Made by a program: the position numbers and the translations under genes
Sequence record: PP449093.1
Reading direction: 5' to 3' (one strand)
DNA from: Escherichia coli phage phiS
Length of the DNA: 64,000 nucleotides
The notes under the pieces: generated by a model
What the model saw: the letters and a program-made list of their open reading frames with translations, nothing else
The model's database searches: none
Told to the model about the DNA's origin: nothing
Shown here: positions 3,808-57,993 of the stretch, piece by piece
Layout: every line of letters begins with the position of its first letter
How positions within the stretch are numbered: position 1 is the first letter of the stretch

Positions 3808-5022
3808 ATGGCTTTCACAGTATCAATTAAATCTAACAAAAGATGTTTTCTTGCTGGAGATGGTTTCACCTTAACGGCGACTTTAGCGGGTGACGACCCA
3901 TTACCCAGCAATTTGACATATACATGGACAAAAGACGGCCAACCGCATGAAAATAAAACAGCTACGCTAACTGTAGAAGGCGCAACAAGTGAAAATGCGG
4001 GTAGCTATAAAGTAACGGTACAAGATACCGATACGATGGCATCAGTAGAATCTGAAGTTTTCCTCATGGAAGAAGCGGAATTAATCGTAAATATCACCGA
4101 ACCGCCGCATTTCTACGTATCATCACAAAAAGACGTAGAATTACATGCAACAGTAAATTTTTCGGGTGGGAAGACTCCAGCAGACAACTATGAACTACAT
4201 TATAGTTGGAGTAAGGGCGAAGAAGTTATAGACACAAAACAGAATACTACAATCAAAAAATTTACAGCAGATAAAAACGGCGTGTATACTGTAAAAGTGT
4301 GGGGTGAGTCGGAAAATTCAGCCGATAGCGCATCGACTAAAATCATGCTGGCAACAATGAACGTAGATCAGGATGTGGTGGAATCAAAGACCGTGGCACT
4401 AGGTAATGAGATCTTACTTAATTATGTTGTGTCAGAGGACATTGTAGGCGATTCTAGCGGTATGCCTGAATTGACGATCAAACATAACTGGTATTTGCAG
4501 CGCGAAGGGCAACCGTCACCGACTCTAATCGGTAGTGAGGACGGCGAAGCACTGGAAGGATTTTCTATCACTCCAGACGGTCATCTGTTCAAAGAGAGTG
4601 CTACTTACGATGACACAGCCAAATTCTGGTGTGTTGCTAAACTATATCAACAGATCGAAGATGAAACAGTAGAAGTTGCAGCAAGTACAAGCAGAAAATG
4701 TTCCATTGAAGTTGTTAAAATGTTTCGTTACGTACACCCGATCCCGTGGCGCAAAACTTCATTTATCTACATTGGATGGTGGGTATTTGACGAGATTGTT
4801 AAATTCAATGAGGCTGGGTTAGAGTGGCGTGACCGAGAAGTTTATTCTACCAGCAAGTACGCCAAAGATCTGGAGACAATCGCGGCAGCGGAAGAACAAT
4901 ATAGTGATTGCACTTGCATGGAATCTCGCAATGGTTTCATGTATCATTCCAAAGATTTACATAAACTGGACCGAGATACGTTAGAGCGAGTTCTACGCAT
5001 TCGTGAAACGCATCCTGCTTAA
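3808..5022 (+). CDS. hoc: Hoc outer capsid decoration protein (Ig-like repeats)
   Basis: Ig-like repeats (YTWTKDGQ, SYKVTV) and conserved C-terminal capsid-binding region (YVHP.P.R...GWWV.DEI, ESRNG) as in T4 Hoc. Confidence 0.8.
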   Translation: MAFTVSIKSNKRCFLAGDGFTLTATLAGDDPLPSNLTYTWTKDGQPHENKTATLTVEGATSENAGSYKVTVQDTDTMASVESEVFLMEEAELIVNITEPPHFYVSSQKDVELHATVNFSGGKTPADNYELHYSWSKGEEVIDTKQNTTIKKFTADKNGVYTVKVWGESENSADSASTKIMLATMNVDQDVVESKTVALGNEILLNYVVSEDIVGDSSGMPELTIKHNWYLQREGQPSPTLIGSEDGEALEGFSITPDGHLFKESATYDDTAKFWCVAKLYQQIEDETVEVAASTSRKCSIEVVKMFRYVHPIPWRKTSFIYIGWWVFDEIVKFNEAGLEWRDREVYSTSKYAKDLETIAAAEEQYSDCTCMESRNGFMYHSKDLHKLDRDTLERVLRIRETHPA

Positions 5023-5023
5023 T

Positions 5024-5050
5024 GAAATCTATCAGCCATCCTTCGGGGTG
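5024..5050 (+). terminator. rho-independent terminator after hoc
   Basis: agccatcc-ttcg-gggtggct hairpin followed by tttttt. Confidence 0.7.
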
Positions 5051-5222
5051 GCTTTTTTGTTTTTGTGCTCGACAGAGCGATTTAGAGGCATATAATGGCA
5101 CGCATCGACCTGCTACTGTCATAGTGAGGCGAAGAAAATATTATGAATATGGGGTTGAAAATGGCGTTGATAACTGTTACTGTCCTATTCGTTGTTGTGT
5201 TTATGAATGTATGAGGTGAAGT

Positions 5223-5420
5223 ATGAATGAGATTGTACGATTGATCAAAGAAGCATCAATCGAGATGTATTTTCTGGCTTTGGTTGCAACAATGGTCTAT
5301 CAGCTAGTCGCATGTCATGTGTGGAAGTCAGAAAATGCGTTTATCCGGTTTATTGGTACTGTCATGATCCAGTTTCCGGTACTGATCACTATCCTGTTAA
5401 TCGTCAATGGGGCGAAGTGA
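5223..5420 (+). CDS. small hydrophobic protein (65 aa)
   Basis: ORF with predicted transmembrane stretches; stop overlaps next start (TGATG). Confidence 0.35.
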   Translation: MNEIVRLIKEASIEMYFLALVATMVYQLVACHVWKSENAFIRFIGTVMIQFPVLITILLIVNGAK

Positions 5421-5695
5421 TGGACAAGAAAACAGCGTTAATGGTTTACATGCTACGCGAAGACCACGGTCTTAATTTTGTTGATATTGCTAAGAAGATT
5501 GGCGGGATCAGCGGACAAGATGCGGCTAAGGCATGGTTGATGGTAAAAGATGCACGCGAGGCTTACGCCAGCCGTGAAAAGGTTGTTTATCGTAAACACC
5601 ACATCAACAAAAAATTTAAAAATAAAGTTCAAAAACGTGTTGACATGCCAAATAACACTGTTATAATGGACGCATTCAAACGGGCAATGTCCTGA
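5420..5695 (+). CDS. hypothetical basic protein (91 aa)
   Basis: ATG at 5420 (M37 of track ORF 5312..5695) overlapping upstream stop; coupling typical of T4 early genes. Confidence 0.4.
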   Translation: MDKKTALMVYMLREDHGLNFVDIAKKIGGISGQDAAKAWLMVKDAREAYASREKVVYRKHHINKKFKNKVQKRVDMPNNTVIMDAFKRAMS

Positions 5696-5741
5696 TTTGT
5701 AATTAATATTCTGAATAACTAATCAATAGAGGTGACTAATT

Positions 5742-6179
5742 ATGAAATTCCGTAAAAACCACGTAGCAATGAAAAAGGCAATGTTCGAAGCATTCAAAGC
5801 AGTTGATCAGGGCGGTGTTACTCTGATTGAGCAAATTAATGTTGATGTTTGGCAATCTCCGGCGATCACTTGCTCCCGTCTTGCTACGGCTGGCCTTCTG
5901 AAAGTTCACAGCTCTACCGCATACGACGAAGCATTGCAAGTTATTAAGGCTTTTGCTGGAGACGTTACCAGCAAGTGGGTCTATGAGAATAAAGGTGAAA
6001 TTGCGGTTGCTCACGTAGGCAACAATATCCAGATGGAAATCAAGATTAAGGAAGGGTCTAAACGCAATCAGATGCTTGTTCGCTTCCAGCCATACAAAAC
6101 TAACGTAGTGCCGGATGATCTGATCATCTCTAAGAGTAATGTTACCATTCGCCGAAATCAGATCGTTATCAACAAATAA
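5742..6179 (+). CDS. hypothetical protein (145 aa)
   Basis: ORF with GAGGTGA RBS, followed by strong terminator. Confidence 0.5.
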   Translation: MKFRKNHVAMKKAMFEAFKAVDQGGVTLIEQINVDVWQSPAITCSRLATAGLLKVHSSTAYDEALQVIKAFAGDVTSKWVYENKGEIAVAHVGNNIQMEIKIKEGSKRNQMLVRFQPYKTNVVPDDLIISKSNVTIRRNQIVINK

Positions 6180-6188
6180 TTAACATTA

Positions 6189-6212
6189 GCCGTCCTTCGG
6201 GGCGGCTTTTTT
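6189..6212 (+). terminator. rho-independent terminator
   Basis: gccgtcc-ttcg-gggcggc hairpin followed by tttttt. Confidence 0.7.
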
Positions 6213-6269
6213 GTATCTGTTATTAACATAATTTTAGTTTACATGTGCACAATATTAATACTGTTTGAT

Positions 6270-6330
6270 TAAATTATGATCAAAACGAAGAAAGATCTTT
6301 AGAACATAGAAAATGTATCTTTGGTTAATT
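6270..6330. repeat. intergenic repeat copy R1 (caaaacgaaga..atctt.tagaa family)
   Basis: Shares tgattaaattatgatcaaaacgaag core with 6420-6480; diverged 3' half. Confidence 0.5.
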
Positions 6331-6419
6331 ATTAATCACTACATATTGTAACACAAATGTTATACTCCGTAGGAGTTCGCGAAGCGATATCCTTTTGTGT
6401 AGTTTTTACATGTATGATT

Positions 6420-6480
6420 AAATTATGATCAAAACGAAGACTTATCTTATAGAATAATAAAAATTTGTTTCGAACATTTA
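6420..6480. repeat. intergenic repeat copy R2
   Basis: caaaacgaagacttatcttatagaataataaaaatttgtttcg; near-identical to 43596-43640. Confidence 0.6.
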
Positions 6481-6539
6481 TTAATCAATTACTGGGAGTG
6501 TTTTATTGCTCGCTGTGCTCGCTTCCGCTACGCGGATAC

Positions 6540-6568
6540 TTGTATTTGTTATTAACTTGTAGTATGAT
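6540..6568 (+). promoter_or_regulatory. sigma70-type promoter (TTGTAT-17-TATGAT) upstream of 6593 gene
   Basis: -35 and -10 hexamers with 17-nt spacer, about 25 nt upstream of the GGAGG RBS. Confidence 0.45.
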
Positions 6569-6592
6569 ATTGCTTTCTATGGAGGAAATATT

Positions 6593-7180
6593 ATGTTTGA
6601 CCAGTTACAAGATCTATTTGGAGTAAAACCACTTCGTAGATGTGCTTTAATCGGCTCTAGAAAAGCGCCTAGCGACATTTTGATAATGGCTAGTACCATT
6701 GGGAGGGTATTGTCAGAAAATCGCGTTGTAGCGCATTCTGGAGGGGCTTACGGTATGGACAATGCTTTCATGAAGTATTACGATCCAGATTATAGAAAAA
6801 TTTTCATTCCAAATTGGAAGTTTTATGACCACAAGCATAACGGGCATGATGTGATTGCATGGCAAACCTTAGAACAAAAAAATCTGGCGATGGATGAATT
6901 AGAACATGTTTATGATAATCCTCGTTCTATACCGTTATACATGCAAAATCTGTTTTCTAGAAATGTTGCTCAAGTCTTAGGTGAGACACTTGATGACCCT
7001 GTAGATTGTGTGATATTTTGGGCGAAAGAAGTTAATGGAATCGTTTCGGGAGGAACTAGAATTGCTGTTTATGTTGCCCGTAGACATGGGATACCATGTT
7101 TTAACTTATATCATCAAGAAAATAGATCCGCCGTCGAAAAAATCTTGGGCGGATCTGACTTGTCTTGGTTAGATATTTAG
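6593..7180 (+). CDS. DprA/Smf-like Rossmann-fold (SLOG) nucleotide-binding protein
   Basis: Motifs GSRKAP and HSGGAYGMDNA resemble the DprA/LOG Rossmann core; remote, by eye only. Confidence 0.4.
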   Translation: MFDQLQDLFGVKPLRRCALIGSRKAPSDILIMASTIGRVLSENRVVAHSGGAYGMDNAFMKYYDPDYRKIFIPNWKFYDHKHNGHDVIAWQTLEQKNLAMDELEHVYDNPRSIPLYMQNLFSRNVAQVLGETLDDPVDCVIFWAKEVNGIVSGGTRIAVYVARRHGIPCFNLYHQENRSAVEKILGGSDLSWLDI

Positions 7181-8422
7181 TTAAGCGTTGTCAATCTCAA
7201 GCGGTGGCAGTTCGATTCCTAAAATGTAGGACATTTCTGAACGTCCAGCCATTTTACCCCAATCGTCACCCTTGATGACCTGGTGTTCTTCCTGATCAAC
7301 TTTTGATGTATATGGGTTGACAGAGAGTGAATAACGATTCATAATAGCTACATGATGCTGGAAGCTATTAGGGTCAATTACACTCTTATACGCGCCAGCG
7401 CCGTCGGCTTCTGTATATGGGGAGTAGAACAGAGAACCTACACTCTCCATATCACCGATCATGTGCTTACAACCAACGAGCATATAATCGAAAGGTGTTG
7501 TCGTGTCTGCGTACACTTCCAGACCGCAACGTAGACGACCTTCGCTTAGAGCATTGTCGGTTTCTTCCATCCATCCGGTAGATTGCAGGAGGCCAACCAC
7601 GCGAGAAGACGCCAAAACGTATGTACCAGCAAAGGAGGAAGTCCGCAACATTTGATTGCTCATTTCGCAAGCATAGCGGTAAAGTTCACGCGCTTGTGTT
7701 GGTGCATCCTGAACGCTAACGAGAGAAAGTATGCCATCAGGGGTGATCCCTTTAATTTTATAGCGAGATGATACAGTGATCAACTTCTGAATAATATCTT
7801 TGTTGATCTCTTCGGAAGCAACAGTAGCCAGAAGATCAATTACAGAGTTTTCAGAGTTGATTTGGCTTGCCTCAAGATCCTGCATTAATTCAGTGGTGAA
7901 CGAGGTTTTCAGTTTACGGGAACCTACATTAACCTGCCATTTATCAAACTGCATAGAGGTAGACGAAATTTCGGTGTTTTTATCTTCAAAGTATTCTACC
8001 GATGCACAATCGCTATAGAAACGAATTTTGTTTGTCATTATGCCTTTAAAGATTGCAGCTTCTGGAGTTTCGGCATCTTCACCGACTGTACCAGCGGTTA
8101 CAACTTCGTATACAACATCGTCTGATTTGAATAGTGCGCCTTCGTCATAAGATTTTTCTTTTGAAAACTCTTCAATCTCTGTGCGATCACCAGCCGCGCC
8201 ACCATAGGTTGTAGCAGTTCGGAAAGTCATCTGACCATCACGATTAAGATAACGTAGGCCGTACAATGCAGATACTGGTTGATCCGTTGGCTGGATTGCT
8301 ACCAGGTCAGAGAAAATCAGGTTGTTTACCGCGCGAGTTAATGATAATAGTTGCGGTCGCGCTGTCTGGTTAGCTACTGAGGAAGTAGATTCCCGCAACA
8401 GTTCAGTAAAAATATGAGTCAT
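7181..8422 (-). CDS. 24: head vertex protein gp24
   Basis: Paralog of gp23 fold; ATG at 8422 aligns with T4 gp24 N-terminus (ELLREST); track ORF extends to 8470 via a non-ATG start that would overlap the late promoter. Confidence 0.85.
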   Translation of the reverse strand: MTHIFTELLRESTSSVANQTARPQLLSLTRAVNNLIFSDLVAIQPTDQPVSALYGLRYLNRDGQMTFRTATTYGGAAGDRTEIEEFSKEKSYDEGALFKSDDVVYEVVTAGTVGEDAETPEAAIFKGIMTNKIRFYSDCASVEYFEDKNTEISSTSMQFDKWQVNVGSRKLKTSFTTELMQDLEASQINSENSVIDLLATVASEEINKDIIQKLITVSSRYKIKGITPDGILSLVSVQDAPTQARELYRYACEMSNQMLRTSSFAGTYVLASSRVVGLLQSTGWMEETDNALSEGRLRCGLEVYADTTTPFDYMLVGCKHMIGDMESVGSLFYSPYTEADGAGAYKSVIDPNSFQHHVAIMNRYSLSVNPYTSKVDQEEHQVIKGDDWGKMAGRSEMSYILGIELPPLEIDNA

Positions 8423-50960: not shown

Positions 50961-51149
50961 ATGGCGTTTTGTCTATGGTTGCTTATAGTATGCTTTGTAA
51001 TTGGTTTATGCTTCTATACTGGCGTATTCTGTTTTGTCGCCTGGATAGACGGCGGATTCTCTAATATCATTTTGCTTGCAGGATCAATTGCCTCGTTTCT
51101 GTTTATTTGGCTATTTTCATATTTGATTGGTGAATGGGATTTATTATGA
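50961..51149 (+). CDS. small membrane protein (62 aa)
   Basis: Hydrophobic. Confidence 0.4.
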   Translation: MAFCLWLLIVCFVIGLCFYTGVFCFVAWIDGGFSNIILLAGSIASFLFIWLFSYLIGEWDLL

Positions 51150-51325
51150 ACAAATATATGTTTTGGGCGACCATTGCCTATGTTGTGATTGCGGTAGTAT
51201 GGGGATTCTGTGTTATTGTCGCTTCTCTGATCTGGTGGGAATCACTTGGTGCGGGTTGTCTGATTAGCGGCGCATCATGTCTTATCACTGGCGTGATTGT
51301 TGGTTTTCTTGTGTCGGAGGCTTGA
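51134..51325 (+). CDS. small membrane protein (63 aa)
   Basis: Hydrophobic. Confidence 0.4.
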   Translation: MGFIMNKYMFWATIAYVVIAVVWGFCVIVASLIWWESLGAGCLISGASCLITGVIVGFLVSEA

Positions 51326-51327
51326 CA

Positions 51328-51543
51328 ATGGTTTTCTTCGGTCTTATTATAATGGTGCTTAATGTCATTTGTGGCGTTGCTATGTTAGCTATGGCCTTTA
51401 CTGTTCCTATGTCTGTTGATAGCGCCGCATCCGTAGGTGTGTTGGGAATTGTAAACCTGTTTACCGCCCTAGCATGTTGGATCACCGGACGCGATGAGGT
51501 AATGTATTACTTTTATAAACGTAAACAGAGAAAAGGAAAATAA
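51328..51543 (+). CDS. small membrane protein (71 aa)
   Basis: ATG at 51328 with GGAGG RBS (track ORF starts upstream). Confidence 0.4.
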   Translation: MVFFGLIIMVLNVICGVAMLAMAFTVPMSVDSAASVGVLGIVNLFTALACWITGRDEVMYYFYKRKQRKGK

Positions 51544-51544
51544 T

Positions 51545-51736
51545 ATGAAATTTGCATTTGGTTTTACCGTGATGTTGATTATTGCTCTGAGTATGTGTAC
51601 CGGAATGCTTGTATTTGGTCTTGCAAACGGGTTTAGCATTTATAATAATCAGTGGGTTGATTGGGGAATGGTTGTCGTTAATGCGATCCTGATTGGTGCT
51701 AATACAAGAAATCTATGCAGGATCGCCGGAATCTAA
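51545..51736 (+). CDS. small membrane protein (63 aa)
   Basis: Hydrophobic. Confidence 0.4.
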   Translation: MKFAFGFTVMLIIALSMCTGMLVFGLANGFSIYNNQWVDWGMVVVNAILIGANTRNLCRIAGI

Positions 51737-52199: not shown

Positions 52200-52775
52200 A
52201 TGGCTTTTAAATATTGGGATGAATCCCTACAAAACGAGATAAAACTTAGATATGCTCATATAGAGGGTATCTTATATTATAGAGTCGATAGTAAAGCTAT
52301 CAAAGGACGACCATTAGGGAGTAGATATAAACACGGCGATTTAGTTAAAGTCAGAACAAATAAAGATGGTCATCTTAGATTTTGGCATAGTAGAGATGAC
52401 GGTCTTCCTAGAGTTCATCTATTCGTGCATAGGGTTGTTTGGTTTCTGGAACATGGGACGCAAGTTAGATTAATTGATCATATTGACGGGAATCCTGCTA
52501 ATAACAATCCTCCAAATCTTAGGGAGGCAACCGACGCGCAAAATCAACACAATAGAAAGAAGAAGTCTAAAAAGTTTTCTAGTGTGTATAAGGGTGTTAG
52601 TAAGTGTAACAGGAAGGATTTGCGTAAGAAATGGAGAGCTAGTATAATGGTCAACCTAAAAAGACATGTTCTTGGACAATATGACACAGAAATCGAAGCT
52701 GCAATCGCTTATGATAATGCAGCTAGGAAATTTTATGGAGAATATGCTCTATTGAATTTCCCAGATCCAAAATAA
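52200..52775 (+). CDS. HNH-AP2 homing endonuclease (copy 2)
   Basis: HRVVWFLEHG, IDHIDGN..NN HNH core plus AP2-like C-terminal domain; paralog of 43744..44277. Confidence 0.75.
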   Translation: MAFKYWDESLQNEIKLRYAHIEGILYYRVDSKAIKGRPLGSRYKHGDLVKVRTNKDGHLRFWHSRDDGLPRVHLFVHRVVWFLEHGTQVRLIDHIDGNPANNNPPNLREATDAQNQHNRKKKSKKFSSVYKGVSKCNRKDLRKKWRASIMVNLKRHVLGQYDTEIEAAIAYDNAARKFYGEYALLNFPDPK

Positions 52776-52837
52776 AATATTAACCATCAACGGGGAGACA
52801 ATCTAAGGATCTCTCCCCGTTCACTGGAGACTTTACC

Positions 52838-53323
52838 ATGAATATTGATGTAAAATTAGAAAGTAAAGATTTGATTTATGCTGCGTGTGTATCTGCCGTA
52901 AATGGCATCATAGAACGCCGTAAGCGACGAAATTTTGCTGATGACCTAGATTCCATCGTCTCAATCAATTTAGGCCGTCAAACAGGGCATACAGACGCTA
53001 CAATCAAGCTATATGACCATTATACGCGAAAAGGATATAGTGTCTTTATCGTTTCAACGACGCGGGAACATGCCAAAACGATCCGAGATCGCGGTCGCGG
53101 TGAAAATGTAAATATTTCAAATGTAGATTGTACGTCGATCCGAACTTTCCTGAATCCGATCACATGGCGAGGGCGTAGTCTTGACAAAACAATTTTTATC
53201 CTAGATACTACCATGCGCGGATTTACTGACAGCGTATTGCAGTTTTTAGAAGTAAATCGACTTAGTGTTGGGATGGGTAATGTAGAAGACCAACCTATTT
53301 TCATTGGCTTAGGTATCAACTAA
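52838..53323 (+). CDS. hypothetical protein (161 aa)
   Basis: ORF with GGAGA RBS. Confidence 0.45.
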   Translation: MNIDVKLESKDLIYAACVSAVNGIIERRKRRNFADDLDSIVSINLGRQTGHTDATIKLYDHYTRKGYSVFIVSTTREHAKTIRDRGRGENVNISNVDCTSIRTFLNPITWRGRSLDKTIFILDTTMRGFTDSVLQFLEVNRLSVGMGNVEDQPIFIGLGIN

Positions 53324-53458
53324 TGAAAAATAAAGATAGCGTAGCTCGTCGATTCCGTGCTACAATCAATAAGAATCGTAAAGTCCAACCTGATAAACTC
53401 TATGGTGTTTTGGTTGGTAAAATTAATGACGAACGTCCTGATCTATAAGAGGTGAATT

Positions 53459-53875
53459 ATGGAATTTAAAGCAATTCAAATCATGAAAGGTGAGCATAAA
53501 GGTACTATTATTGGTGGACACTTCGCGCCTATGATTCTGGTATCCGAACCGAAAGCACTGATCGGCGCTAAAGTAATTGTTAGTAAAACTTTCGCAGAAG
53601 ACCATGTGATCACCGCAGAAGACGTCGATTCTCTGGCACTGCACACAACTAGCTTCCGTCCTGTTTATATCGAAGATAGTATTGGTATGAAGCGAGGATC
53701 TCAACATCTCAACGTCAATGTAATGAATCGCGACCTTCTTCTGGATGCGGTAGAGAATCCGGATAAATATCCATCACTAACTGTACGAATTTCAGGCTAT
53801 GCGGTCAGATTTAATGCACTTACGCCGGAACAACAACGAGATATCATTACCCGAACCTTCACGGAAGCAATGTAA
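53459..53875 (+). CDS. autonomous glycyl-radical cofactor (GrcA/YfiD-like; T4 Y06I-type)
   Basis: C-terminal glycyl-radical motif (HLNVNV, TVRISGYAVRFN, LTPEQQRD) near-identical to GrcA. Confidence 0.85.
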   Translation: MEFKAIQIMKGEHKGTIIGGHFAPMILVSEPKALIGAKVIVSKTFAEDHVITAEDVDSLALHTTSFRPVYIEDSIGMKRGSQHLNVNVMNRDLLLDAVENPDKYPSLTVRISGYAVRFNALTPEQQRDIITRTFTEAM

Positions 53876-53882
53876 TTTTTTA

Positions 53883-53915
53883 AGCCAATCCTAAAGGGTT
53901 GGCTTTTTCTTTTTA
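53883..53915 (+). terminator. rho-independent terminator
   Basis: agccaa...ttggct hairpin followed by ttttt c ttttt. Confidence 0.6.
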
Positions 53916-53958
53916 TTGTGATATGATGACAAAACTTAACAACATGGAGATTGACATT

Positions 53959-54486
53959 ATGATTAAAAGATATTGTGACGACCATCCGGTGGAAGAGTGG
54001 AAAGTGATTGAGGATCTTTATCCGTTAACTCATTTTGAGATTAGCTCTCATGGTCGAGTTAGAAATTCTATTACCGGAAAATATTTGTCTATTGTTGAAA
54101 CGAAAGATTATACTAAAGTTTCTTTTAAGCATCGTCCTAGTAAAACGCATAAAACTTTAAACATGCATAGGATGATGGCTGTTGCGTTTATTCCTAATCC
54201 TAATAATTATCGTGTAGTTAACCATAAGGATGGAAACAAGAGAAATTTTGACCTGTACAATCTTGAATGGACTACAGACACGCGAAATCTTGCTCATGCA
54301 AAGGAAGAAGGGTTAAACAAAAATTGGGGAGAGAACCACGGAAACGCAAAACTAACAGATAAGCAAGTGAAAGAGATTTTAGCTTCTCCACATATGAAAG
54401 GTGTAGAGCTTGCAAGAAAATATAATGTTACCCCTGCCACAATTAGCCGTGTCCGAAATGGTAAAGTCCGTAACGTCAAATACTAA
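53959..54486 (+). CDS. HNH homing endonuclease with NUMOD4-like N-terminus and C-terminal HTH
   Basis: HFEISSHGRVRN, NHKDGNKRNF..NLEW HNH core, C-terminal helix-turn-helix; ATG at 53959 follows the terminator (track start lies inside it). Confidence 0.7.
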   Translation: MIKRYCDDHPVEEWKVIEDLYPLTHFEISSHGRVRNSITGKYLSIVETKDYTKVSFKHRPSKTHKTLNMHRMMAVAFIPNPNNYRVVNHKDGNKRNFDLYNLEWTTDTRNLAHAKEEGLNKNWGENHGNAKLTDKQVKEILASPHMKGVELARKYNVTPATISRVRNGKVRNVKY

Positions 54487-54499
54487 TGAGGGTTTAATT

Positions 54500-55198
54500 A
54501 TGCATACAATGGTTAAAATGGTTTTCGGATCTCACTTATACGGCCTTGATACTGAAAATTCCGATAAAGATTATCGTGGTATCTTTGTTCCGACTGCGAA
54601 AGAAATTATCTTAGGATCGATGAAAGAACACTATGACCAAAGCACTAGCGGTCAAGGTATCAAGAACACCAAAGACGATATTGATGTTAATATGTTCAGT
54701 CTAAAACGGTTTATCAATCTGGCATGTAAAGGCGATATCGGCGCTATTGACATGGTGCACGCTCCTAGTAACATGTTGATCGAATCCTCCAGAGAATGGG
54801 AATACATCCGAACACATCGAGATAAATTCTATCATGTTGGTATGTGGGGTTTGTCTGGCTATCTCAAAAAGCAGGTAGCCAAATCTGAAAAGTATTTCAG
54901 TAACTGGAAAGATCTTTCTCATGCTCTGCGTGTTGGTTATCAGCTACTTGAAATCTATCAAACTGGTGATCTACAATTCCCGCTCGCGCGACGTTCTTCT
55001 ATTTTAGCGTGTAAGTTAGGAGAAAGAACCTTTGATAATGTGCGGGAAGAATTGAAAGATCTCTACGAGCGTGTTAAACTCGCGCGTGAAGAGGCAAAGA
55101 AAAACGGTATGCCGGAAGAACCAGATATTGACTTTTGGAAAGATCTATTAGAATATATTCATCTGACAGTTGTTCTGGAACACTATACCCGTGGTTAG
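54500..55198 (+). CDS. nucleotidyltransferase-fold protein (Pol-beta superfamily GS..DxD motif)
   Basis: FGSHLYGLDTENSDKDYRG matches the minimal NTase signature; ATG at 54500 with GAGGG RBS. Confidence 0.45.
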   Translation: MHTMVKMVFGSHLYGLDTENSDKDYRGIFVPTAKEIILGSMKEHYDQSTSGQGIKNTKDDIDVNMFSLKRFINLACKGDIGAIDMVHAPSNMLIESSREWEYIRTHRDKFYHVGMWGLSGYLKKQVAKSEKYFSNWKDLSHALRVGYQLLEIYQTGDLQFPLARRSSILACKLGERTFDNVREELKDLYERVKLAREEAKKNGMPEEPDIDFWKDLLEYIHLTVVLEHYTRG

Positions 55199-55219
55199 TT
55201 AATATAGGAGATTAAGAAA

Positions 55220-55414
55220 ATGCAAGTTTATACCAATAGCAATAAAGGACAAGATATTACGCCCGGAAAGATGTATGATTTTACCCCGGCACGAGACGAC
55301 GAAAATCCACCGACAATCGGGTATATTGAAGATGATGCGGGGTTTCGTATTACAATACTTCTTAAGGATGGATGTTTTCATCTTCGCGGTGATCGTTGGG
55401 AGTTAGTACCATGA
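55220..55414 (+). CDS. small protein, tandem paralog family member A
   Basis: Shares motif with 55411..55656 and 55716..56051. Confidence 0.45.
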   Translation: MQVYTNSNKGQDITPGKMYDFTPARDDENPPTIGYIEDDAGFRITILLKDGCFHLRGDRWELVP

Positions 55415-55656
55415 TGTATGTGATGACACCTTATAGTAACCGCAAGTATATTACACCTAATACACTGTATGAATATACACCACATGAAAGATTTTCGAAT
55501 AGTGGTTATATCCGTGATGATAAGGGACACCAGATTTTTATTTGTCTTAAAAATTGTGCACACTTAGACGGTCGAACCTGGACACTGGTCGAAGAACCAA
55601 AACAACATGAGAATAAAGGTCTTTGGAATGTGCTAAAAAAATTCTTGAAAAAGTAG
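55411..55656 (+). CDS. small protein, tandem paralog family member B
   Basis: ATGA overlap with A. Confidence 0.45.
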   Translation: MMYVMTPYSNRKYITPNTLYEYTPHERFSNSGYIRDDKGHQIFICLKNCAHLDGRTWTLVEEPKQHENKGLWNVLKKFLKK

Positions 55657-55687
55657 TTGACAGCATGAAACGGGGGGGTAGTAATAT
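55657..55687 (+). promoter_or_regulatory. early promoter cassette P6 (TTGACA-19-TAATAT)
   Basis: Same cassette as P2 with two extra G in spacer; conserved leader. Confidence 0.45.
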
Positions 55688-55715
55688 ACCCCCATCGAAA
55701 CAAAGGAGTATTAAA

Positions 55716-56051
55716 ATGAGTGTTAAAGAAGTGTTTGTTTATACCGACTATGACGGGTGCGCCTATCTCACTGCTGGAAAACTTTACCGTTGTGAGATTA
55801 TTCATGGTACGCTAGGTCGAATTATGTGCGATCCGATTACAAAATTGTGGAAAAATAATCCTAGTGAGCGAGAAACTCTTATTAACCTAGATCCAGACGG
55901 TTGTTCACATTTGGACTATAGAAAATGGCATATAGTTACACATGATGCTTATGGTATTCATCTTGCTACTAAAGAATTAACTATTGACAAGTTCAAGTTT
56001 AAAGAAATCCCGTTTGTATACTGGCTTCGCAATTTGTTTAAGAAAGGATAA
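55716..56051 (+). CDS. small protein, tandem paralog family member C (111 aa)
   Basis: Weaker similarity to A and B (LT.GKLY, HLD.R.W). Confidence 0.45.
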   Translation: MSVKEVFVYTDYDGCAYLTAGKLYRCEIIHGTLGRIMCDPITKLWKNNPSERETLINLDPDGCSHLDYRKWHIVTHDAYGIHLATKELTIDKFKFKEIPFVYWLRNLFKKG

Positions 56052-56055
56052 TAAA

Positions 56056-56478
56056 ATGGAAACAATTAACGTACATGTTCGCCGTAGTAAGCTGCGTAGA
56101 TTCTTCGAAACCGAAATGCGCAAAACCAATGCGCAGATCAAAGAAAAGTGCTTGAATGATGGTTACGGTGAGTATATTTTCATTCGCTTTAGTCCGCATA
56201 TGATCGACCGTCTAACCGATCGTCATATCGATGAACATAAGACAATGGAACTATTCAATAAGATAGAAACTCGTTTGCCGGAGATCTTCGACTTCCTGAA
56301 AATGGAAGACCGTCCGAATCGATTAGAAATTACTGACGGTAACATGTGGATCGGGATGACAGTAGATCTAATCGAAGACGGCAAGCCATATCACGGTCTA
56401 TGCTGCCGAATGATTATAGAGAATCCAAAACGACTGGCGGGTAAAATGTCGGCGGTTGTTTTGAAGGTAGACCAATAA
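56056..56478 (+). CDS. hypothetical protein (140 aa)
   Basis: ATG at 56056 with AAAGGA RBS. Confidence 0.45.
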   Translation: METINVHVRRSKLRRFFETEMRKTNAQIKEKCLNDGYGEYIFIRFSPHMIDRLTDRHIDEHKTMELFNKIETRLPEIFDFLKMEDRPNRLEITDGNMWIGMTVDLIEDGKPYHGLCCRMIIENPKRLAGKMSAVVLKVDQ

Positions 56479-56501
56479 TGGAAATTGGTTAAAAATAATG
56501 C

Positions 56502-57537: not shown

Positions 57538-57993
57538 ATGATTATTGATACTGTAAAGGGCGATCTCATCGCCCTGTTTAAACAAGGAAACGGTCATTTA
57601 ATTCATGGTTGTAATTGTTTTCATACTATGGGCGCTGGTATTGCTGCAAAGATCGCGAAAGAGTTACCGCAAGCGTTAGAGATTGACAAGCAAACTTCTC
57701 GCGGTAAGGTAGAAAAGCTGGGTGGGTTTAGTGTCTGGACGCATCAAGTTAATGGTTATAACTGGTGCGGGGTGAATCTCTATACCCAATTCCGACCGGG
57801 TCCAAATGCTGAATATGGTGCTATCCTGAAAGGATTTGAGACTATCAATGATGTTTTTGAAGGTGCTATACAGCCTTTCTATATTCCTAAAATCGGTTGC
57901 GGTATCGGTGGCCTTGAGTGGGAATGTGTAGAAGAGATCATTAATATTGCTACTCCAGACATTAACATTGTGGTGGTTGAATATGACAAATAA
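57538..57993 (+). CDS. macro-domain protein (ADP-ribose binding/hydrolase fold)
   Basis: N-terminal pattern GDL...LIHGCNCF..MGAGIA and later IGCGIGG resemble the macro-domain Gly-rich loops. Confidence 0.5.
   Translation: MIIDTVKGDLIALFKQGNGHLIHGCNCFHTMGAGIAAKIAKELPQALEIDKQTSRGKVEKLGGFSVWTHQVNGYNWCGVNLYTQFRPGPNAEYGAILKGFETINDVFEGAIQPFYIPKIGCGIGGLEWECVEEIINIATPDINIVVVEYDK

Follow-up and report, generated by a model that had tools for sequence, protein, structure and literature searches.

The bacterial RlaP nucleotidyltransferases are among the closest described relatives of the protein considered here, which is encoded at positions 54500..55198 (+) of a 64,000-nucleotide stretch of Escherichia coli phage phiS (sequence record PP449093.1; this whole stretch is hereafter called the window). 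The RlaPs of P. fluorescens and P. aeruginosa were characterised in a preprint of December 2025, where they were found to transfer one or two nucleoside monophosphates (NMPs), or deoxynucleoside monophosphates (dNMPs), onto the 3'-OH of RNA (PMC12776372). Their preferred metal is Mn2+, and the broken end is the favoured site on a cleaved transfer RNA (tRNA) mimic; they also label full-length tRNAs and ribosomal RNAs (rRNAs), and are inactive on DNA, protein and 3'-phosphate ends, with no labelling of E. coli proteins (PMC12776372). When a tRNA lacking one anticodon-loop nucleotide was pre-treated with RlaP and then ligated, aminoacylation was partly regained, and RlaP was proposed to counteract 'smart' ribotoxins, RloC among them (PMC12776372). 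RloC removes the wobble nucleotide, and its discoverers proposed that this defeats phage tRNA repair (PMC2610378). The RlaPs of jumbo phages are predicted to restore the nucleotides excised by RloC (PMC7824862). In phage T4, NrdC.11 was assigned as a nucleotidyltransferase (NTase; COG3541) in 2006 (PMC1524935), and was later placed in cluster 5 of the RlaP family (PMC12776372). As shown here, the phiS gene is the Krischvirus orthologue of T4 nrdC.11 and a member of the RlaP family (PF10127) with an intact catalytic signature (G10-S11, D22, D24 and D62). Databases and the literature already cover this gene, the family to which it belongs and the chemistry that it probably catalyses.

The gene runs from an ATG at 54500 to a stop codon at 55196-55198 and encodes 232 amino acids. 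Megablast of the region 52800-56500 returned 58 phage records, all of them Krischvirus-type coliphages (RB49, Phi1, JSE etc.) at 90-99% identity; in both Phi1 and JSE, the gene is annotated as nrdC.11. With T4 NrdC.11 (NP_049709, 336 amino acids, 'nucleotidyltransferase' in RefSeq), the protein gives a BLASTP match at E=8e-51, in which the phiS protein has a gap of about 104 residues between two conserved blocks of 42-51% identity. The earlier statement, made in a first-pass annotation of this locus, that no T4 counterpart is recognisable was therefore wrong. The Pfam RlaP model is matched at E=3.4e-14 with 53.6 bits, the cutoff being 23, and residues 7-191 cover positions 24-198 out of 249. 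PF10127 is described as 'RNA repair pathway DNA polymerase beta family'. A further match, to the phrog_388 'nucleotidyltransferase' family, has an E-value of 2e-79. In a profile-profile comparison with hhalign, the NrdC.11 clade was aligned with the canonical RlaPs at 95.5% probability (E=1.3e-8).

The catalytic signature occupies residues 9-27, FGSHLYGLDTENSDKDYRG, at 54524..54580 (+), and was read from the sequence with the spacing G10-S11, ten residues, D22-K23-D24. Both open reading frames (ORFs) of the locus and this GS-x10-DxD motif were found exactly as first described, and a chance motif is excluded by the Pfam and phrog_388 scores. The codon at 54683..54685 (+) encodes D62, the predicted third catalytic carboxylate, which lies on strand 61-67 of the AlphaFold model and aligns with the Asp of the LDIN motif in canonical RlaP. 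Across 88 relatives, G10, S21 and D22 are invariant, while S11, D24 and D62 are conserved in at least 90%. RlaP is the sole Pfam match of the protein, with no match to the CCA-adding enzyme or poly(A)-polymerase families. The NCBIfam scan gave no significant match, and neither did PADLOC, whose only match was to a CARF/HEPN model at E=0.032. Searches of the Protein Data Bank (PDB) sequences with the protein and with the 88-sequence profile returned chance matches only, such as haemoglobin and troponin.

The family is widespread. By tblastn, homologues of nrdC.11 were found in 1,619 phage records, which include most T4-like phages, and at one copy per genome. An exhaustive protein search gave 3,575 representative clusters at E<=1e-3, of which 190 are at E<=1e-30. 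Within Krischvirus, the gene shows synonymous divergence (dS) of 0.07-0.11 and a nonsynonymous-to-synonymous ratio (dN/dS) of 0.02-0.05, and is thus under strong purifying selection. It was also observed that many GenBank and UniRef entries label NrdC.11 homologues 'thioredoxin', and one 'HNH homing endonuclease'. The 'thioredoxin' name looks like an annotation error that spread from the name of the nrdC gene.

The AlphaFold2 model of the protein, built on the 88-sequence alignment, reached a mean predicted local distance difference test (pLDDT) score of 96.3 and a predicted template modelling (pTM) score of 0.91. It consists of an alpha/beta NTase domain of the polymerase β type (about residues 1-115) and a helical domain (about 116-230) with a long terminal helix at residues 210-230. 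In the crystal structure of PfRlaP, an N-terminal NTase domain is similarly followed by a C-terminal helical domain, the terminal helix of which packs back on the NTase domain (PMC12776372). The assignment to the polymerase β superfamily is supported by Pfam, phrog_388 and the predicted fold. The description of the protein as a 'minimal' NTase does not hold, as it is a two-domain protein of standard RlaP size, the Pfam model having 249 positions. When the model was compared with the PDB by Foldseek, the nearest structures were ANT(4')/kanamycin nucleotidyltransferase (KNTase), the Hailong protein HalB (9dbh), AAD(9), LinB and 3c18. HalB and the aminoglycoside/lincosamide enzymes are alike at the level of the fold only, with TM scores of 0.37-0.49 and identities of 8-14%. 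None of the top PDB matches was a cGAS/DncV-like nucleotidyltransferase (CD-NTase), cGAS or OAS structure. Thus, of the NTase families among which the protein was to be placed, the KNTase type provides the nearest solved folds; CD-NTase, minimal nucleotidyltransferase (MNT) and CCA-adding enzymes do not fit, and the family itself is RlaP. The predicted fold lies inside the NTase superfamily, and BFVD contains numerous proteins of phages, giant viruses and baculoviruses (HE65) with the same fold.

The close relatives are nearly all 300-350 amino acids long and align with the phiS protein in two stretches, with only a few short forms among them (P0002, P0140, P0153 and P0226). What the short forms and the phiS protein lack is an insert of about 100 amino acids. 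In the model of a T4-type long form (P0017; overall pLDDT 94.4), this insert (about residues 132-238) folds into an additional alpha/beta subdomain between two helices, with a pLDDT of about 95. In the phiS protein, the corresponding insertion point is a loop of residues 129-135, encoded at 54884..54904 (+). The alignment of the Pfam RlaP model runs colinearly through the short forms and is interrupted in the long ones where the insert lies. Since the deletion boundaries differ among the short forms, the insert looks like a dispensable module, the loss of which in some lineages restores the canonical RlaP layout. The phiS protein is thus a short variant of the T4 NrdC.11 group with that canonical layout.

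A scan of one genome per species gave 17 loci that encode NrdC.11-type relatives. In a Nitrosospira contig (L022), the gene order is Ro60 (TROVE/vWA), RtcB, RtcA, NrdC.11-type RlaP, canonical RlaP, Hen1, an AAA ATPase and DUF2201; the NrdC.11-type relative is a long form and is 43% identical to the phiS protein. A canonical RlaP gene lies directly 3' of the NrdC.11-type gene in five loci, from Nitrosospira and several Desulfobacterota (L022 5001-6743, L023 5001-6699, L019 5001-6714, L025 ~4998-7911 and L028 5001-5833), one of which, L025, also carries Hen1 and RtcB. An RNA ligase is present 3 kb 5' of the NrdC.11-type gene in L027, and an HD-domain gene directly 3' of it in L015. In Vibrio phage R16F, the gene of the homologue directly follows one for a CCA-adding enzyme, with the end of which it overlaps. 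No RNA-repair neighbours of the homologue were found in Mycobacterium phage Silverleaf or Bacillus phage CM1. In the R16F locus (vB_VpaM_R16F; L011 4514-7004), the large terminase subunit is annotated as five consecutive short coding sequences (CDSs), which suggests introns, inteins or frameshifts.

The role that these observations most likely point to, by analogy with the bacterial enzymes, is the refilling of nucleotides lost from cleaved host tRNAs before they are ligated. Among the functions offered in the first-pass annotation, that of a tRNA/RNA repair enzyme appears to be the one best favoured. Judging from the bacterial RlaPs, NrdC.11 would use nucleoside triphosphates (NTPs), with Mn2+ preferred, and would add one or two untemplated nucleotides to the 3'-OH of broken RNA, its preferred substrate probably being the 5' halves of cleaved tRNAs. 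In the proposed scheme, the phage polynucleotide kinase-phosphatase would strip the 3' phosphate, NrdC.11 would refill the nucleotides trimmed by RloC-type host anticodon nucleases, and RNA ligase 1 would reseal the tRNA. The whole would be an extension of the classic tRNA-repair counter-defence of T4. The two flanking enzymes are encoded in JSE as pseT (Pnkp) and rnlA (Rnl1). Since the end produced by Pnkp is a 3'-OH and Rnl1 ligates a 3'-OH to a 5'-phosphate, an RlaP step would fit chemically between the two. No tRNA genes are present in the window or in 94 kb of JSE, and the substrates would thus be host or phage RNAs and not phage tRNA precursors. A second RlaP or an nrdC.10 homologue was likewise absent from the window and from the JSE regions examined.

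Several points weigh against this role. The hhalign match to canonical RlaP is limited to the NTase domain and leaves the C-terminal domain unaligned, and the pairwise identity is only about 17%. T4 NrdC.11 itself was called 'of unknown function', and the assayed enzymes sit in another sequence cluster (PMC12776372). The addition of nucleotides by RlaP is untemplated, which would make correct refilling inefficient (PMC12776372). T4 tolerates the loss of nrdC.11 in the laboratory (PMC9825161), as would be expected of a counter-defence gene. In JSE, pseT and rnlA lie about 78 kb from nrdC.11, and neither is found within the window. Finally, the side-by-side retention of both types in bacteria suggests that the NrdC.11-type and canonical RlaPs are not equivalent and are non-redundant. 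With these points taken into account, we give a probability of roughly 60% to the overall reading, that is, an RlaP-family nrdC.11 orthologue with a tRNA-refilling role next to an upstream HNH gene that is selfish and not a partner. If phage NrdC.11 does refill RloC-type excisions, it would answer the question raised in 2008 of whether phages reverse the wobble-nucleotide-excision lesion, and a third enzyme would be added to the textbook tRNA-repair pathway of T4.

The bacterial tandems lead to a more specific idea, which is possible but on the whole doubtful. The NrdC.11 type may be a functionally distinct RlaP paralogue, which bacteria keep in tandem with a canonical RlaP within or next to RNA-repair operons and which is the sole type kept by T4-like phages, and may represent the missing third enzyme of Pnkp/Rnl1 tRNA repair against RloC-type excision. 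A limited survey of the literature contained no mention of the pairing of NrdC.11-type with canonical RlaP. For testing this idea, the Krischvirus protein, which has no insert, would be the simplest form, and together with the bacterial tandem of the two types it offers a handy starting point for work on the role of NrdC.11 in infection.

The gene directly upstream, at 53959..54486 (+), encodes a homing endonuclease of 175 amino acids (ATG at 53959, stop at 54484-54486). It had been described as a NUMOD4-HNH-HTH protein. The HNH part of this description stands, as HNH_3 passes its Pfam cutoff (26.8 against 24.8 bits; core residues 70-110), whereas NUMOD4 (20.6 against 23.4) and HTH_26 (17.8 against 22) fall just below theirs. 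The protein also matches the phrog_59 HNH endonuclease family (1.7e-36) and the PADLOC 'homing endonuclease' model (6.4e-15). In Phi1, the spacer between vs.6 and nrdC.11 has no HNH gene and holds only a terminator-like hairpin, a promoter-like site and the ribosome-binding site of nrdC.11. The empty site was verified in Phi1 and is indicated by match length in RB49 and others. In phiS and JSE, an HNH cassette is present between the promoter-like site and nrdC.11; at its upstream junction the nrdC.11 initiation region persists as a diverged copy, and at its downstream junction an exact copy is restored. MIZ4 and a metagenome locus (L007, with an NTase 57% identical to that of phiS) carry another NUMOD4-HNH gene at the same site, 28% identical to the phiS one. 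In T4, the unrelated HNH gene mobD lies directly 5' of nrdC.11.

Divergence around the site is uneven. The phiS and JSE endonucleases share 75% amino acid identity (dS 0.74, dN/dS 0.25), and vs.6 differs to an unusual degree among closely related Krischvirus genomes (dS 0.49-0.86), while the adjacent nrdC.11 in the same comparisons is about 99% identical (dS ~0.1). The divergence of vs.6 may reflect co-conversion around the endonuclease site. Such varying occupancy is typical of homing-endonuclease hot spots (PMC2988022). Because the site is either empty or filled with differing HNH genes while nrdC.11 stays about 99% identical, the vs.6-nrdC.11 spacer shows the pattern of a homing-endonuclease hot spot and not that of a functional pair. 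A selfish, free-standing HNH gene would have entered the space that separates nrdC.11 from its promoter, and would ride on the nrdC.11 transcript. The phiS HNH protein was also considered as a homologue of MobD, in a conserved unit of endonuclease and nrdC.11, and this was ruled out, as the two have no similarity.

The same genus shows other traces of mobile elements. A second free-standing HNH endonuclease (HNH_3 with an AP2 DNA-binding domain, 191 amino acids) is encoded in the window at 52200-52775, between the endolysin gene and vs.8; an ORF is present at the same place in JSE and not in Phi1. That the two HNH genes of the window are recent duplicates was ruled out, as only the HNH core is shared (E=0.003). 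In JSE, the DNA polymerase is annotated as two CDSs, and nrdD is interrupted by a homing endonuclease gene (L005 17062-20204 and 35715-38337). Both cases again point to a heavy traffic of mobile elements in the genus.

Other functions for the NTase, and for the pair of genes, were weighed against refilling. The enzyme might add tails to RNA 3' ends for another purpose, either by extending host tRNAs and rRNAs for shut-off, as MenT does, or by marking or stabilising the fragments made by RegB. The labelling of full-length tRNAs and rRNAs by RlaP would agree with this, as would the position of nrdC.11 three small genes 5' of regB in Krischvirus. The closeness to regB is, however, not kept in T4, which has about 6 kb between the two genes, blocked tRNA 3' ends would hurt phage translation too, and the bacterial relatives reside in repair operons. 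Metal-independent ribonucleases typically leave 3'-phosphate ends, and these RlaP cannot use. Such tailing is thus unlikely. It is more improbable again that the protein acts like an MNT antitoxin or another AMPylating enzyme, which would nucleotidylate a protein (a HEPN toxin or a host factor) or a small molecule in the manner of KNTase or LinB. Here, ANT(4'), AAD(9), LinB and DrrA among the nearest folds, a C-terminal domain that resembles HEPN-type helical bundles and a very weak match of T4 NrdC.11 to MntA (E=0.07) speak for it. The structural matches are at the level of the fold only (identity 8-14%, TM about 0.4), MntA is matched at 13 bits, far short of its cutoff of 60, bacterial RlaPs do not label E. 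coli proteins, and no HEPN gene adjoins nrdC.11 in the window.

The presence of HalB among the same fold matches raises the proposal of a short DNA or mixed oligonucleotide product (e.g. oligo-dA) that would serve as a decoy or signal mimic and, for instance, silence a Hailong-type channel. The identity to HalB is just 13%, a search of the PDB with the NrdC.11-family profile does not retrieve any HalB sequence at E<=10, and PADLOC gives no significant match. Moreover, RlaP adds only one or two nucleotides and does not extend DNA, and the bacterial neighbours are RNA-repair genes and not HalA, which makes this proposal highly improbable. A signal synthase or mimic of the CD-NTase/cGAS type, interfering with immunity such as the cyclic-oligonucleotide-based anti-phage signalling system (CBASS), had been among the first suggestions. 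It has in its favour only the shared GS...DxD signature of the superfamily, and with no CD-NTase, cGAS or OAS among the top folds and no significant PADLOC match, its probability is close to nil. The same negligible weight is given to the HNH endonuclease and the NTase as a functional two-gene module, the pairing that had been implied at first. Three unrelated HNH genes do lie directly 5' of nrdC.11 (in phiS/JSE, in MIZ4/L007 and as mobD in T4), but they are mutually unrelated or at most 28% identical, in the pattern typical of hot spots (PMC2988022). Phi1 (verified) and RB49 and others (by match length) are free of the HNH gene, and their nrdC.11 is intact and shares about 99% identity, so the adjacency is incidental. 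Refilling of cleaved tRNAs thus remains the preferred function, and the re-analysis both corrects the claim about T4 and separates the NTase from the selfish endonuclease that adjoins it.

The signals around the two genes were placed as follows. A terminator-like hairpin with a 10-bp stem followed by a run of T was found by consensus scan at 53882..53905 (+), 3' of the vs.6/GrcA-like gene, and is kept in Phi1 and JSE. A promoter-like site, TTGGCT-17-TATGAT with a TG before it, lies at 53899..53927 (+) as a consensus match, with a presumed function; it is located 5' of the HNH gene in phiS and directly 5' of nrdC.11 in Phi1. The Shine-Dalgarno-like TGAGGG of nrdC.11, read from the sequence, is at 54487..54492 (+), and this element together with the start region is identical in Phi1 and JSE. 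The JSE endonuclease begins with MMIKRYCDD, and the MIKRYCDD N-terminus is shared with the phiS endonuclease. The starts at 53959 and 54500 are thus supported by the agreement of these relatives.

The gene order in Phi1 and JSE is endolysin, vs.8, a small ORF, vs.6, nrdC.11, three small ORFs, regB, vs.1, vs and tk.4. In phiS, the vs.6 orthologue at 53459-53875 encodes a GrcA/YfiD-like autonomous glycyl-radical cofactor, with scores of 1.9e-14 for Gly_radical and 1e-33 for NCBIfam GrcA, the latter under the equivalog cutoff. Three tandem small ORFs (55220-55414, 55411-55656 and 55716-56051) lie between nrdC.11 and regB; they are mutual paralogues, and all match phrog_6261 and/or phrog_15978, families of unknown function. 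Small, strongly hydrophobic ORFs of 62-88 amino acids are present 5' of the endolysin gene at 50961-51736 and match unnamed hypothetical genes in JSE and Phi1. A few genes 3' of regB and nrdC.11, at 57538-57993, lies the orthologue of tk.4, a gene that the JSE record lists as encoding a phosphatase of the A1pp (macro-domain) type. Macro domains are able to process the ADP-ribose 1''-phosphate left over from RNA repair, and this link to RNA repair near nrdC.11 may or may not be meaningful.

In comparison with known systems, the phiS NTase differs clearly from the HEPN-MNT antitoxins, which are single-domain proteins of about 100-140 amino acids encoded beside a HEPN gene, whereas the phiS protein has 232 amino acids, two domains, and an HNH gene and small ORFs as neighbours. 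With HalB, ANT(4')/KNTase, AAD(9) and LinB, it shares the order of a polymerase β NTase domain followed by a helical domain; it is unlike HalB and the aminoglycoside and lincosamide NTases in that no sequence profile connects them, and in that their substrates are either dATP for addition to DNA or antibiotics. The endonuclease resembles the T4 mobA-E products and the I-HmuI-like NUMOD4/HNH_3 enzymes in its HNH_3 core, and also in being a promoter-less cassette between a host promoter and a downstream gene with a presence that varies among close relatives, although with T4 MobD it has no detectable similarity. Between T4 and phiS, the NTase signature and a homing endonuclease gene directly upstream are common to both phages. 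The T4 protein is longer (336 against 232 amino acids) by the insert at about residues 132-238, and the neighbouring genes differ, being vs.6 and regB in phiS, and mobD.1 and nrdC.10 in T4. The bacterial RlaP of Pseudomonas, the gene for which lies between rtcB and rtcA (PMC12776372), belongs to another sequence cluster at about 17% identity. Nevertheless, it has in common with the phiS protein the Pfam family, the NTase and helical layout without an insert, and the three Asp residues, and the NrdC.11 subfamily is likewise found in RtcB/RtcA/Hen1 operons.

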